Below, piece after piece: positions 46,327 through 53,206 of a DNA stretch of 64,000 nt. The DNA is taken from the UHGV virus genome UHGV-1384413, one strand, 5' to 3'. The stretch comes from a virus. The notes under the pieces are model-generated. The model was not told where the DNA came from, searched no databases, and saw only the letters and a program-made list of their open reading frames with translations. The position numbers and the translations under genes were made by a program. Positions within the stretch are counted from its first letter, which is position 1, and each line of letters opens with the position of its first letter.

Positions 46327-47088
46327 TTACAGTTCCATAAAGTTTTCTACGATGTCAATGAATGTTTTATCAGAGAAAGCGTCAACAGCCCCGTTAAACC
46401 AAACTGGGATGCCGCGATCCTCATACTGGTAAATGTCACTACGTGAAATGCCATTCTCCCCTAAATGCTGTGAGTCGTATTTGTTAACGATCAGCAGTTT
46501 GGTCCCCTTATTACAGGCAGGGAATAGCTCCCAGTTAAAATTGATAACTGTGTTGGAGCACCCTATAAGGATAACCATATCATTGCTCGTCAGAGAAGTC
46601 AACAGGTCATACATGTCTGTATACTTTGGAGCTACTTCTCCGAAGAACACGACATTAGGCTTAACCCAAGTATACTTGCTTGCATCTACCTCAGAGTATC
46701 CAATGTCTTTAATGACGTTACTCCCTTCATCATCCTCGTAGACTATTTCTGGCAAATATCCGTGGACATGTAAAATATCTTCATGTTTTACACCAGCACG
46801 CTCCAGCAAATCATCTACATTGGTTGTCAGGTTGATCACGCGACCAGACCAGCGGGAATACCATTCAGCGATCCGGAGATGTGCAAGGTTAGGATCAACA
46901 CTGCCCAGAGCTACACGCCGTGCATTGTAAAAGTCATGAACCTTATAGTAGTTCTTGGCAAAGGTGTGGATGTTACACACCTCATCGATGCTGAAATTCT
47001 CCCACATTGCAGTGCCACCAGATCGGAAAGTTGGGATACCAGATTCAGCGCTCAAACCAGCACCGGAGATAATGATCAGTCGTCGCAT
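46327..47088 (-). CDS. Sir2-family (sirtuin-like) NAD-dependent protein lacking zinc-ribbon cysteines
   Basis: GAGLSAESGIPTFRS, FYNARR, TTNVDDLLERAG, HVHG, VVFFGE blocks match sirtuin catalytic core. Confidence 0.7.
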   Translation of the reverse strand: MRRLIIISGAGLSAESGIPTFRSGGTAMWENFSIDEVCNIHTFAKNYYKVHDFYNARRVALGSVDPNLAHLRIAEWYSRWSGRVINLTTNVDDLLERAGVKHEDILHVHGYLPEIVYEDDEGSNVIKDIGYSEVDASKYTWVKPNVVFFGEVAPKYTDMYDLLTSLTSNDMVILIGCSNTVINFNWELFPACNKGTKLLIVNKYDSQHLGENGISRSDIYQYEDRGIPVWFNGAVDAFSDKTFIDIVENFMEL

Positions 47089-47096
47089 AAGTGTCC

Positions 47097-47447
47097 TCAG
47101 TAGATGTTTTGTTTAATCTCTATTCCAAACTTTTTAAACGAGTCAGCAGCAAGCATGAATTTACGAGCAGCTGATGGGTTAGAAGTATGCACGAAAATCT
47201 TCACGTTGTCAACTACAGGAGGCTTACCAAATATAAATTTTTCCTCCAGCATAGATAGGCAATCGTACCCTTCAAATACCTCTCCAAGGTCGTTGTCCAT
47301 GTGCCACTCAGAAACGCGCCTGTAGAGCTTTCCCTTATCGTTAATAAAATCCATAAACTCAGAGGAATTCTTTAGCCAAAGAGCATCTGGGAGCCCATAA
47401 TTTGACGGATCTCTCAAGTCATCCAGCCACACAATCAACTTCTTCAT
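47097..47447 (-). CDS. hypothetical protein (116 aa)
   Basis: ORF between Sir2-like and Rnl-like genes. Confidence 0.5.
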   Translation of the reverse strand: MKKLIVWLDDLRDPSNYGLPDALWLKNSSEFMDFINDKGKLYRRVSEWHMDNDLGEVFEGYDCLSMLEEKFIFGKPPVVDNVKIFVHTSNPSAARKFMLAADSFKKFGIEIKQNIY

Positions 47448-48358
47448 TGCATATAGTCCTCGTTGTGGAAATAGTAGTCAAGTATCTCACGACGTTCTTG
47501 CTCCAGGAGGCAGTTCCACACATCTTCTGTGTAATTGCTACGAATGAAGTTTACCATGCCATAAAACTCTTCGTCAACACGTTTAAAGATATCATCATCC
47601 CAAATCTTCCAAGCTTTACCCCTCATTACGGCCTTCCGTGCCAAATAGTATGGAGACTTGATCTTCAGCTGCAAATCATAAGGGTAGTAAGGCTTACGAA
47701 TCATATACCCTTCACCTCTTGTTTCTGCAGCTAATTCTTTTGCATAGCTGAACGGAATTTCACGCACAGTGTGAGGACGTTTTGCACCAAGGTATTTGGC
47801 AATCCCATCTAAAGCTGCTTCTGGTAGCATTATTCCAGAATCATTATATCTGCAACCTATCAAATATGCGCCATGATCTTCCTGAACAATATGCGGATCT
47901 GAAGGGTGGCAAATTTCAAACATGAATGTCATGTTTTCATGGCCCATAACCCTCTTGATAAGATCTAAATTACCACATTGCTCCTGGATTGTTTCTTTTG
48001 CGAGGTTACAATATGGAGAATCAAGAGACCCGGTTGTTGAGAACAATAGTTCACCTTTATGAGATGATACCACACCAAGGAATCCGTTCTTTTTCTCTAC
48101 CGCCGTCACAAGTTTATTGTCAGGCAGGTTGGTGGAATTTTCTCCCAAGTTAAACACTTTTGTGAAGGGCCATGCCACAACATTTCCTTCATTACCGACA
48201 ACAATGCCTCGGCACTCCAGCAAACGAGGAGACAAATGCCATAAATTGTTGTAGAATACTTTTCTGGCATATTTATAGATCTTTAACCCAAGATCCGGGT
48301 AATATCTGCTGGTTACAAGACCTTTGTCAACTAGGTCGTCTGCATTAAAATACTTCAT
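47444..48358 (-). CDS. RNA ligase-like nucleotidyltransferase (Rnl family candidate)
   Basis: KKNGF (KxNG motif I variant as in tRNA ligases); divergent from polynucleotide kinase gene. Confidence 0.5.
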   Translation of the reverse strand: MKYFNADDLVDKGLVTSRYYPDLGLKIYKYARKVFYNNLWHLSPRLLECRGIVVGNEGNVVAWPFTKVFNLGENSTNLPDNKLVTAVEKKNGFLGVVSSHKGELLFSTTGSLDSPYCNLAKETIQEQCGNLDLIKRVMGHENMTFMFEICHPSDPHIVQEDHGAYLIGCRYNDSGIMLPEAALDGIAKYLGAKRPHTVREIPFSYAKELAAETRGEGYMIRKPYYPYDLQLKIKSPYYLARKAVMRGKAWKIWDDDIFKRVDEEFYGMVNFIRSNYTEDVWNCLLEQERREILDYYFHNEDYMQ

Positions 48359-48479: not shown

Positions 48480-48890
48480 ATGTCTAAAATGCTATATATC
48501 GTGCGTGGTCTACCAGGGTCTGGCAAATCAACACTGGCAAATGCGCTATCTTTAGAAGGTCTGTATCCACATTTTGAGAACGATATGTTCTGGTACGACG
48601 ATGACGGCAATTACAATTGGGATGCAAGTAAAGTAACACTTGCAGCAAAATGGTGCAAAGATAACGTAGAAGATATGATGCGTATGGGCTACGACCGTAT
48701 CGTGGTAAGTAATACGTTTACAAAAGAAAAATATGTGCAAGAATATATTGACATGGCGATCAGTCATGGATATAGTTATACCGTGATCGTGGTTGAAAAC
48801 CGCCATGGTAATAAAAGCATTCATGATGTTCCAGACAGGGTTGTGGATCGTATGGAACGCCAGCTTAAAAACTGCATTAAACTTAAATGA
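48480..48890 (+). CDS. polynucleotide 5'-kinase-like P-loop protein
   Basis: N-terminal YIVRGLPGSGKSTLA Walker A typical of Pnk kinase domains; ACGGAGAG RBS. Confidence 0.6.
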   Translation: MSKMLYIVRGLPGSGKSTLANALSLEGLYPHFENDMFWYDDDGNYNWDASKVTLAAKWCKDNVEDMMRMGYDRIVVSNTFTKEKYVQEYIDMAISHGYSYTVIVVENRHGNKSIHDVPDRVVDRMERQLKNCIKLK

Positions 48891-48897
48891 GGAATGT

Positions 48898-49452
48898 ATG
48901 AAATACTTTGTAACAAGCGACACACACTTTCTCCACCAGCGGGTAATGGAGTTCGACTCATGTCAAAAACACAGATCTCAGTATGATCACAATCTTGACA
49001 GTATGAATGCGGGAATCATCACCAAGTGGAACTCTGTTGTGTCACCTGCAGACACTGTGTTTCACTTGGGGGATATTGCGTGCACTAATGATAAGAATAT
49101 CAACAAATTGCTTCCAGATGTTCTAAATATGTTGAACGGACATATTATTCTTGTTCGTGGTAACCATGACACAAGGACGACTGTCAGAATTATGAAAGAG
49201 TTCGGTCATGAGGTTGTAGATTATTACGAGCTTCGCCACAACAAGAATTTGATCTGTATGAGCCATTACCAGTTTGCAAAGTGGAACAGAAAGCCTCACG
49301 GATCAGTCCAACTGTTCGGTCATGCTCACGGAACCACACAGCAGTTGTTTGGCAGGCAGTTTGATGTCGGTTGGGATGTGTGGGGGAGACTCTTACCATT
49401 AGAAGAGGCATACCGTATTGCAATGAGTCTTGCTATTGACAGCGGGGAGTAA
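48898..49452 (+). CDS. calcineurin-like metallophosphoesterase
   Basis: SDTHF, GDIA and GNHD motifs; GAGGA RBS. Confidence 0.7.
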   Translation: MKYFVTSDTHFLHQRVMEFDSCQKHRSQYDHNLDSMNAGIITKWNSVVSPADTVFHLGDIACTNDKNINKLLPDVLNMLNGHIILVRGNHDTRTTVRIMKEFGHEVVDYYELRHNKNLICMSHYQFAKWNRKPHGSVQLFGHAHGTTQQLFGRQFDVGWDVWGRLLPLEEAYRIAMSLAIDSGE

Positions 49453-52298: not shown

Positions 52299-52394
52299 AA
52301 TATTTTCTTGACAAACTTTGCTTAACAGTGTAATATTGTAAACATGGTCTCCCACCTTTTCTGGCGGCTCAGGTGTAAAAGAAAGCCACCCAGT

Positions 52395-52469
52395 GCCCTG
52401 TTAGCTTAGTGGATAAAGCAGCGGCCTTCTAAGCCGTTGACACTGGTTCGAGTCCAGTACGGGGTGCCA
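52395..52469 (+). tRNA. tRNA-Arg (anticodon TCT)
   Basis: Manual cloverleaf: acceptor, D, anticodon loop CTTCTAA, T-loop TTCGAGT, CCA encoded. Confidence 0.8.
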
Positions 52470-52473
52470 AATT

Positions 52474-52560
52474 GGGGAGTTATCCCGTAGAGGTAGCGGT
52501 GTAGACTGTAAATCTATTGTCATTGCGACTCGGGTGGTTCGACTCCACCACTCCCCACCA
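52474..52560 (+). tRNA. tRNA-Tyr (anticodon GTA), long variable arm
   Basis: Acceptor GGGGAGT/ACTCCCC, anticodon loop CTGTAAA, T-loop TTCGACT, CCA encoded. Confidence 0.75.
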
Positions 52561-52674
52561 AATTTACATTTTTAAATGCATAAATTATACAGATAATGAC
52601 ATTGATATTTATCGTCGTTTATACTAGTCACTAACTGCTCGAAAATCAGTGTCATTATCAGTGTAATTTATAAA

Positions 52675-52765
52675 GGAGAGTAGGGAGCAATGGTGCTCAA
52701 GCGGTCTTGAAAACCGTCCCATTGAGGACGACTTGATGATGGTTCGATTCCATTACTCTCCGCCA
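52675..52765 (+). tRNA. tRNA-Ser (anticodon TGA), long variable arm
   Basis: Acceptor GGAGAGT/ACTCTCC, anticodon loop CTTGAAA, 20-nt variable arm, CCA encoded. Confidence 0.8.
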
Positions 52766-52863
52766 TATTGTTAACCTTGTAATTAAGCGAAAGCCGGAAG
52801 CAGAACCGGATTATCAAATGTTACAGTCGTCATCGCCGACTAGCAACATGGTTAACATTATTC

Positions 52864-52960
52864 GCTAGGTAAGCCCTTTGGCAAGGGCGAGGATTTTTAA
52901 TCCTGAAAATAGACGAGGTAGTCGTTGAATACATAGGTGGTTCGATTCCATCACCTAGCA
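52864..52960 (+). tRNA. atypical tRNA-like gene (possible anticodon TTT) with about 30-nt variable region
   Basis: Perfect 7-bp acceptor stem, D-arm and T-arm; anticodon stem only 4 bp; no CCA encoded. Confidence 0.45.
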
Positions 52961-52966
52961 CCTTTT

Positions 52967-53042
52967 GCTGATGTAGCACAATTGGCAGTGCAATTGATTT
53001 GTAATCAATAGGTTGCAGGTTCAAGTCCTGCCATCAGCACCA
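52967..53042 (+). tRNA. tRNA-Thr (anticodon TGT)
   Basis: Canonical cloverleaf, anticodon loop TTTGTAA, CCA encoded. Confidence 0.85.
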
Positions 53043-53043
53043 T

Positions 53044-53118
53044 GGCCCTGTAGCTGGAAGGTTCAAGCAAGCGACTCATAATCGCCAGACGGTGGTTCAA
53101 TTCCACCCAGGGCCACCA
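53044..53118 (+). tRNA. tRNA-Met/Ile2 (anticodon CAT)
   Basis: Acceptor GGCCCTG/CAGGGCC, anticodon loop CTCATAA, T-loop TTCAATT, CCA encoded. Confidence 0.75.
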
Positions 53119-53129
53119 AATAATAAATA

Positions 53130-53206
53130 CTCCGCGTAGCTCAGCTTGGTAGAGCGCCTGATTTGGGATCAGGAGGTCGAGTGTTCGAATCACTCCGTGG
53201 AGACCA
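53130..53206 (+). tRNA. tRNA-Pro (anticodon TGG)
   Basis: D-arm TAGCTCAGCTTGGTAGAGC, anticodon loop TTTGGGA, T-loop TTCGAAT, CCA encoded. Confidence 0.8.

Follow-up and report, generated by a model that had tools for sequence, protein, structure and literature searches.

A family of tRNA-shaped RNAs inside the tRNA clusters of Vequintavirinae and phi92-like phages

Is a gene that folds like a transfer RNA (tRNA) and lies among tRNA genes necessarily a tRNA? The question arises at 52864-52960 on the plus strand (with a further CC to 52962) of UHGV virus genome UHGV-1384413, of which a stretch of 64,000 nt, here called the window, was analysed. The window is the genome of a Vequintavirus (rV5-like Escherichia myophage), and the 951 bp around the element are 97-99% identical to more than 100 such genomes. 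An earlier note, made from the letters alone, had described a perfect 7-bp acceptor stem, a D arm, a T arm (GGTGG-TTCGATT-CCATC) and about 30 nt between the anticodon and T arms, and had offered a degenerate pseudo-tRNA, a tRNA with an insertion or a tRNA-like regulatory RNA as possible identities. The three arms are as described and the intervening region measures 31 nt (52905-52935). Comparison with relatives shows the element to be the Vequintavirus member of a discrete family of tRNA-shaped phage RNAs found inside the tRNA clusters of Vequintavirinae and phi92-like phages, and it is very probably a conserved, structured, tRNA-like RNA that does not decode.

A discrete family within phage tRNA clusters

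A blastn search with the element returned 114 rV5-like records at 94-97% identity and diverged copies (72-75%) in Avunavirus and Seunavirus; orthologues from other genera align along its whole length. Queries taken from the diverged copies added PVP-SE1, SSE121, 4MG and GAP31, Mydovirus (KB57, Mydo and Klebsiella phages), Raoultella phage Ro1, Henunavirus (Erwinia phages Hena1 and pEp_SNUABM_01), and the phi92-like Justusliebigvirus of another subfamily (Stephanstirmvirinae). Homologues are present in roughly 200 GenBank phage genomes, covering five Vequintavirinae genera and the phi92-like phages; these searches brought up none in Phapecoctavirus or Certrevirus. Pattern scans of IMG/VR and metagenomes yielded further variants; the total sample comprises 25 distinct sequence variants, on 20 of which a covariance model and the alignment statistics were built.

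Family members score 91-121 bits on this model and every ordinary tRNA at most 30, with none between the two across about 1 Mb of phage and metagenome loci; given so clear a gap, the family is discrete. A scan of 185,579 bacterial and archaeal genomes (one per species) for the family motifs gave two matches, both rejected at 10.8 bits or less on the family model. On that one scan, which covered a single genome collection and which members without the scanned motifs would escape, the family looks phage-specific.

Every copy is embedded in a tRNA cluster. The preceding gene is tRNA-Ser in rV5, tRNA-Ile, -Ser or -Arg in Seuna- and Mydovirus, tRNA-Thr in Avuna- and Henunavirus and tRNA-Leu in phi92-like phages. 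Among rV5-like genomes the element is near-identical although its flanks vary. The rV5 and Av-05 forms are the shortest (96-97 nt), whereas most others have about 105 nt plus CCA.

Existing annotation treats the same gene in many ways. GenBank labels include tRNA-Lys, tRNA-OTHER, tRNA-TERM or 'suppressor', tRNA-Stop(tta) and tRNA-???(atcc); elsewhere it is overlapped by hypothetical coding sequences or left blank, the rV5 and PVP-SE1 reference records among them. ARAGORN, suggested as a check in the earlier note, makes no canonical call and reports 'tRNA-???(atcc)' at 52864-52962. Rfam holds no family for the element, and in the window form it is matched by the generic tRNA model alone, at 35.5 bits (gathering score 29; E = 1.5e-5) over 52864-52960, in an alignment that needs an anticodon-stem deletion and a 26-nt variable-region insertion. 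The PVP-SE1, Klebsiella-phage and phi92-like forms have no Rfam match above threshold: the first obtains 27 bits on the tRNA-Sec model (gathering score 47) and the other two match nothing. Only the short rV5-type form reaches threshold on the tRNA or tRNA-Sec models.

Some records and loci met along the way deserve mention in their own right. Eighteen 'Campylobacter phage' records (MG065635-MG065690) are about 95% identical to rV5-like coliphages across the locus; of the twelve listed, all but three measure 128-143 kb, the three being 58-60 kb. They have the appearance of Vequintavirus genomes whose stated host is doubtful. On the unrelated viral contig IMGVR_UViG_2506381023_000002 (locus L055, 2281-2367, minus strand), an 8-bp stem (CACGTGAA/TTCACGTG) encloses a T-arm-like hairpin, GAAGG-TTCGATT-CCTTC, with UGAAAAG...CAAUAC motifs ahead of it; the family model gives this structure 25 bits, and it resembles a tRNA minihelix. 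In phi92-like phages the element is followed, about 70 nt downstream, by a second odd, unannotated tRNA-like gene (PaulScherrer, MZ501100.1, locus L027 1389-1467; locus L028 587-665), with a promoter-like TTGACA...TATAGT of its own upstream. This gene has a 7-bp acceptor stem, a T arm, CCA, a 22-nt variable region and a normal anticodon arm with UCU (Arg); its D arm is absent, just 7 nt separating the acceptor and anticodon stems. Rfam gives it 38.6 bits on the tRNA model with the D arm deleted, and ARAGORN misses it.

A covarying tRNA body, a conserved module and a changing loop

Covariation was evaluated on the 20-sequence alignment for the four cloverleaf stems and one tertiary pair, with shuffled alignments and slid partners as controls. 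Standard pairs amount to 98.6%, compared with 81% in shuffles and 28-46% for slid partners, double-sided changes occur in 11 of the 21 pairs, and the covariation score is 0.50 against 0.17 (shuffles) and at most 0.11 (slid). The covariance folding that had been proposed as a further check upholds the cloverleaf. The same five arms are recovered by RNAalifold and by single-sequence folds, and they form the minimum free energy (MFE) structure of the window element (z = -3.7 relative to shuffles).

In the acceptor stem, G1-C72 and C2-G71 are invariant in the 20 variants and pairs 3-5 carry compensatory changes; pair 3:70 is C-G, A-U or U-A, and G3:U70 is absent. Three of the four D-stem pairs covary, and so does the T stem (UA to CG, GU to GC or AU). 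The second G of the D loop (G19) pairs with C56 of the T loop in the canonical elbow of 13 variants (TTTGGCAA with TTCGATT), and in the remaining seven both partners have changed jointly to U19:A56 (TTTGTCAA with TTAGATT), with no exception among the 20. These seven look like one clade, and the exchange may have been a single event. A8 and U14 are invariant across all variants, a swap of the usual U8/A14 arrangement.

Between the anticodon-position hairpin and the T stem lies a module of 31-40 nt in which two conserved strands flank a hairpin. The 5′ linker begins with GAAAA in 25 of 25 variants and continues with UA or AUA in all but two Erwinia-phage variants. The 3′ linker is near-invariant as (G/U)AAUACAUA and runs into the T stem, its AAUAC being invariant and the next AUA nearly so; the phi92-like form reads UAAAUACGAAA. 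When the segment is folded alone, 24 of 25 variants place the variable hairpin at one common position, the pEp_SNUABM_01 segment giving a shifted stem. The stem of this hairpin ranges from 3 to 9 bp and its sequence is unrelated between lineages; the Av-05 hairpin differs from that of the window by a compensatory A-U to G-C change.

The anticodon position behaves differently. The 4-bp stem with loop TTTTTAA given in the earlier note is a possible reading of the window, but a fifth pair (U31-A39) can form and the orthologues favour 5 bp with a loop of 5-6 nt, which we take as the best reading; three of these five pairs covary (AU, UA and CG types). The loop is UUUUA in rV5-like and UUAUA in Av-05-like forms, CAUCCA, CAGCCA, CCGCCA, CCUCCA, CUUCCA or CCUCAA in Seuna- and Mydovirus, and AUCAA in Erwinia-phage, phi92-like and one metagenomic form. 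U33 is absent from most lineages, and the discriminator is A, U or C. The nominal anticodon TTT can be read in the window if U31-A39 stays open, together with A73, and the combination is confined to this one genus. As for canonical features, the orthologues have the 7-bp acceptor, the GG-containing D arm and the TΨC-type T arm, and do not share the 5-bp stem with 7-nt loop, U33 and conserved anticodon, or U8/A14.

Since Avunavirus and other lineages differ in loop and discriminator, lysine decoding is, on this comparison, not the conserved function of the family. Tools based on tRNAscan annotate tRNA-Lys because the open loop UUUUUAA and A73 match the lysine identity set; that nominal reading is probably a genus-specific coincidence or a secondary adaptation. 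More generally, we infer from the orthologous sequences that the family cannot decode like a normal tRNA, because it has no normal anticodon loop. Judged by the pattern of substitutions, selection maintains the tRNA body, the elbow and the linker strands and does not maintain the anticodon. It is the option of a tRNA-like RNA that covariation and family evidence favour.

The fold behind the ARAGORN call (stem ATTTT/AAAAT, an 8-nt loop and a 4-base anticodon ATCC) was ruled out, as its stem is absent in other genera. Separately, a consensus scan marks 52873-52899, where GAGGATTTTT comes after the D-arm hairpin, as resembling an intrinsic terminator; the U-rich loop of the genus probably produces this likeness by chance, given that the T-run is missing in other genera.

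At the acceptor end most lineages encode U73-CCA, and the window form A73-CC. The earlier note had the element without CCA, which holds for the terminal A; the CC is encoded. Divergent 3′ ends are U-ACA in Av-05, C-ACA in TH18 and U-UCA in phi92-like phages. A review of identity elements names G1-C72, C2-G71 and U73 as bacterial glycine determinants; according to the same source, no tRNA but tRNA-Gly combines U73 with G71, and this combination directs acetylation by TacT (PMC9976931). In one metagenomic variant the loop reads CUUCCA, differing from that of tRNA-Gly(UCC) by one missing A, and the loop CC (C35/C36) is found only in Seuna- and Mydovirus forms. When the trimmed core was compared with 167 phage tRNAs of the same loci, the top matches came from several isoacceptors (Gly, Cys, Met, Thr, Arg). 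A tRNA-Gly is a plausible ancestor, though overall similarity does not single Gly out. The idea of a tRNA with an insertion may accordingly describe the origin of the family, in view of its Gly-type acceptor end and Gly-like loop variant, but not a working decoder, because the loop has 5-6 nt and varies between lineages and U33 is mostly missing.

Salmonella phage GE_vB_MG (MG969411.1, flagged UNVERIFIED; locus L004) shows, against its close relatives, single-C deletions in two C-runs, turning the loop CAUCCA into CAUCA and the 3′ CCA into CAA. These are more typical of homopolymer sequencing error than of real variation.

The surrounding locus and the possible role of the RNA

The cluster (Table 1) runs Arg-TCT, Tyr-GTA, Ser-TGA, the element, Thr-TGT, Met/Ile2-CAT and Pro-TGG, and ARAGORN calls no other tRNA-Lys in it. 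The tRNA-Thr begins 4 nt 3′ of the CC of the element. Read directly from the sequence, CCA is encoded by each of the six neighbouring tRNAs, one more than first counted. A ligase, kinase and phosphoesterase set sits 3.4-5.4 kb upstream of the element. T4 repairs cleaved tRNA-Lys with a similar set of end-healing and sealing enzymes.

Table 1. Parts of the element and features of its neighbourhood in the window
Feature	Position	Strand	Remarks
Acceptor stem, 5′ strand GCTAGGT	52864-52870	+	7/7 pairs with 52953-52959
Positions 8-9, AA	52871-52872	+	A8 in place of near-universal U8
D arm GCCC / TTTGGCAA / GGGC	52873-52888	+	GG in loop
G26 connector	52889	+	invariant
'Anticodon-position' hairpin AGGAT / TTTTA / ATCCT	52890-52904	+	alternative AGGA / TTTTTAA / TCCT
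Single-stranded linker GAAAATA	52905-52911	+	conserved
Variable-arm hairpin GACGA / GGTAG / TCGTT	52912-52926	+	
Single-stranded linker GAATACATA	52927-52935	+	conserved
T arm GGTGG / TTCGATT / CCATC	52936-52952	+	canonical T-loop
Acceptor stem, 3′ strand ACCTAGC	52953-52959	+	
Discriminator A73 and encoded CC	52960-52962	+	CC at 52961-52962, no terminal A; read from sequence
tRNA cluster, 7 genes	52395-53206	+	ARAGORN and Rfam
Sigma-70-like promoter TTGACA-17-TAATAT	52308-52336	+	upstream of tRNA cluster; consensus scan only, 10/12 matches
Second, weaker promoter-like site	52596-52625	+	in Tyr-Ser spacer (52561-52674); consensus scan
SIR2-family protein	46327-47088	-	adjoins RNA-repair-like set
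Rnl1-type RNA ligase (PF09511)	47444-48358	-	
P-loop kinase	48480-48890		
Calcineurin-like metallophosphoesterase	48898-49452		

Two features of the cluster stand apart from the element itself. In rV5-like phages a 98-nt spacer (52766-52863) with small hairpins (CCGG...CCGG, GTCG...CGAC) separates it from tRNA-Ser, whereas in most genomes and in other genera the gap to the flanking tRNA is 2-7 nt; because of that difference the spacer may be what is left of a tRNA since lost. The CAT-anticodon tRNA at 53044-53118 is called Met by ARAGORN, whereas the BASEL record of a near-identical phage gives a tRNA-Ile reading ATA, i.e., lysidine-modified.

Which role would account for such an RNA? The explanation that we prefer as a whole, with slightly more speaking for it than against it, is a conserved non-decoding family that is processed as a tRNA mimic. 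The element would be co-transcribed with the neighbouring tRNAs from the promoter-like site at 52308-52336, cut at its 5′ end (52864) by ribonuclease P (RNase P) and trimmed at its 3′ end back from the 5′ cut of tRNA-Thr, four nucleotides downstream. In this phage the host CCA-adding enzyme would supply the terminal A, and a stable RNA of about 98 nt, incapable of normal decoding, would accumulate. The acceptor end, T arm and elbow would then engage a tRNA-binding factor, with the linker-plus-variable-arm module giving specificity. That the RNA acts in trans as a tRNA mimic seems to us evenly balanced. In the version of this mechanism that we prefer, it would serve as a decoy or sponge against host defences or toxins that target tRNA, although in that specific form the proposal is tentative.

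As a decoy, the RNA would capture and inactivate a host factor that reads the tRNA body or the acceptor end, be it an immune nuclease that cleaves tRNA or a toxin that modifies the CCA or aminoacyl end, the linker-plus-variable-arm module being the inhibitory part, and the Vequintavirus hairpin may have drifted into, or been recruited as, a look-alike of the tRNA-Lys anticodon arm. Phages of the rV5, PVP-SE1 and phi92 groups would on this account make an RNA counter-defence alongside rescue tRNAs and RNA-repair enzymes, which we offer as speculation that could well be wrong. Phage tRNAs are known to counter tRNA-cleaving defences (PMC11464382, PMC12409363, PMC12445682). Tyr-GUA, Thr-UGU and Pro-UGG isoacceptors are reported targets of Retron-Eco7, PARIS and P2-OLD, and phage tRNAs whose anticodon stems are altered or shortened are resistant to such cleavage (PMC12409363, PMC12445682).

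Several points weigh against a decoy or, more broadly, against a non-decoding mimic. The RNA-repair-like genes and the targeted isoacceptors in the cluster make a decoy role attractive, and they are context, not evidence. The loop that a decoy for an anticodon nuclease must present is the least conserved part of the family, and the invariant linkers could equally serve a role in cis or a protein unrelated to defence. Neither the reading of one annotated genome nor a scan of eight nearby open reading frames, short of a systematic search, brought a partner protein to light, and literature searches returned no published description of the RNA. In this genus, moreover, loop and A73 fit lysine identity, and a decoding role here is possible.

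We consider it unlikely that the rV5-like element is a real, if aberrant, tRNA-Lys(UUU) whose 4-bp anticodon stem and UUUUUAA loop let it escape host tRNA-Lys nucleases. In infected cells it would take the place of the host tRNA, just as the tRNA-Lys of T5 does against PARIS. The window does read U33-UUU-A37-A38 with A73, and anticodon plus A73 is the Escherichia coli lysine identity set (PMC9976931); Rfam and tRNAscan-based annotations say Lys, and the cluster would otherwise be without a tRNA-Lys. Apart from a change at position 41, UAAUC|C in the 3′ half of loop and stem is similar to the sequence context of AriB cleavage (PMC12409363), phage tRNA-Thr with shortened anticodon stems resists P2-OLD (PMC12445682), and one report mentions bacterial tRNAs with 4-bp anticodon stems (PMC13092985). 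Orthologues speak otherwise: the sister genus Avunavirus has UUUAUAA with U or C as discriminator, and in all remaining lineages a C-G pair closes a loop of 5-6 nt. Even in the window a U31-A39 pair can reduce the loop to 5 nt and the MFE fold leaves just 3 nt of it open, the tRNA reading goes without position 26 or a 27:43 pair, and positions 8 and 14 are swapped. The LL12 record, too, carries the remark 'isotype prediction inconsistent'.

Equally improbable in our estimation is a role in cis, in which a tRNA-shaped spacer of the operon transcript would attract RNase P or further processing enzymes to determine where the neighbouring tRNAs end or how stable they are, and would have no function once released. 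The setting suits it, as the element always lies inside a tRNA cluster, usually 2-7 nt from a flanking tRNA, and its best conserved part (acceptor, T arm and elbow) consists of RNase P recognition features. An ordinary tRNA would nevertheless do equally well. The invariant GAAAA(A)UA and AAUACAUA, the maintained variable hairpin and the retained U73-CCA would be unaccounted for, and the order of neighbours is not fixed across genera.

The acceptor end raises a further possibility, which we rate as rather doubtful: a Gly-type acceptor that is charged, or bound by glycyl-tRNA synthetase without charging, in a non-decoding role. The RNA would then be a non-ribosomal donor of amino acid, or a regulator or sponge of the synthetase or of toxins acting on the tRNA-Gly end. 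Invariant G1-C72 and C2-G71, with U73-CCA in most lineages, are glycine identity elements (PMC9976931), and YCCA stands in the loop of many variants, one of them CUUCCA. The rV5, Av-05, Erwinia-phage and phi92-like forms lack C35/C36, however, the window has A and TH18 has C as discriminator, and several lineages have no CCA 3′ end. Overall similarity does not mark tRNA-Gly as closest, and no aminoacyl-tRNA-dependent transferase was noticed in one annotated relative.

Far less probable is a base-pairing small RNA whose conserved linkers would act as seeds on mRNAs of the phage or the host. At 7-9 nt and apparently unpaired, the two conserved stretches do recall the seeds of many small RNAs, but their complements are not enriched within the window: for TATGTATTC, allowing at most one mismatch, 21 matches stand against 18.7 expected, and for TATTTTCAG there are 4 against 1.2 expected, the element itself included. 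The tRNA fold and the CCA end would also be left without account. Finally, a decaying tRNA pseudogene carried along in the cluster, which the non-canonical loop, the missing terminal A and the inconsistent tRNA-finder calls might suggest and which had been among the first proposals, is scarcely credible against compensatory changes between genera in all four stems and the tertiary pair (98.6% paired, 11 doubly changed pairs), linkers invariant across two phage subfamilies and near-identity in rV5-like genomes despite varying flanks.

Significance and comparison with known systems

Cleavage of tRNA is a major bacterial anti-phage strategy, and phage tRNA genes are countermeasures. If the mimic reading were true, a non-decoding tRNA-shaped RNA conserved across about 200 sequenced phages would add a new type of participant to this conflict, and its carriers include therapeutic and model phages (rV5, PVP-SE1, phi92-like phages and the BASEL collection). 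At minimum the element belongs to a new structured RNA family. The inconsistent GenBank labels distort phage tRNA counts and claims of 'suppressor tRNAs', which a dedicated covariance model would fix. The family can also be regarded as a natural experiment on what the tRNA core tolerates, given its A8/U14 swap, U19:A56 elbow, 5-6 nt loop and long variable region.

Among known RNAs, class II tRNAs (Leu, Ser, Tyr, Sec) are alike in having a cloverleaf with an extra hairpin between the anticodon and T arms, a 7-bp acceptor, a canonical T-loop, GG in the D-loop, a CCA end and a place in tRNA clusters. In the family, in contrast, the variable hairpin is set off from the core by invariant single strands of 7-9 nt, the loop is 5-6 nt and non-conserved, A8/U14 replace the usual bases and the discriminator is not fixed. 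Class II variable regions have roughly 13-22 nt, against 31-40 here, and the tRNA-Sec model gives no match on the window element.

T4 RNA C and RNA D (species 1 and 2 RNAs) are likewise small RNAs from a phage tRNA region, and RNA C has a T-arm-like hairpin; unlike the family they measure 119-139 nt and have another architecture. They are transcribed beside tRNA genes and their roles are unexplained (PMC3014915). Homology was tried and rejected: run with filters off over the T4 tRNA region, the family model scores rnaC at 9 bits and has no match on rnaD.

Nuclease-resistant phage tRNAs (T5 tRNA-Lys against PARIS AriB, tRNA-Thr against P2-OLD) share the setting in phage clusters and altered anticodon stems, and the window form adds a UUU-like loop and a position beside the defence-target isoacceptors Thr(UGU) and Tyr(GUA). 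They are, however, canonical decoders with few substitutions, whereas the family has no conserved anticodon and carries a large added module.

Of the same general kind are tRNA-shaped RNAs used outside decoding. Bacillus cereus tRNA-Other (PMC3399842), mascRNA (PMC9976931), the tRNA-like module of YrlA/Y RNA and the tRNA-like domain of transfer-messenger RNA (tmRNA) are all tRNA-shaped, are acted on by tRNA enzymes and have uses other than decoding. None of these cellular look-alikes matches the family by sequence or model, and the family has neither G3:U70 nor a Ro-binding stem and, in the scans made, occurs in phages only. For tmRNA and YrlA in particular, ARAGORN finds no tmRNA, and the only Rfam matches to either lie elsewhere and far below threshold. 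The family apparently constitutes an undescribed group of non-decoding tRNA look-alikes, and one with a clear structural definition.

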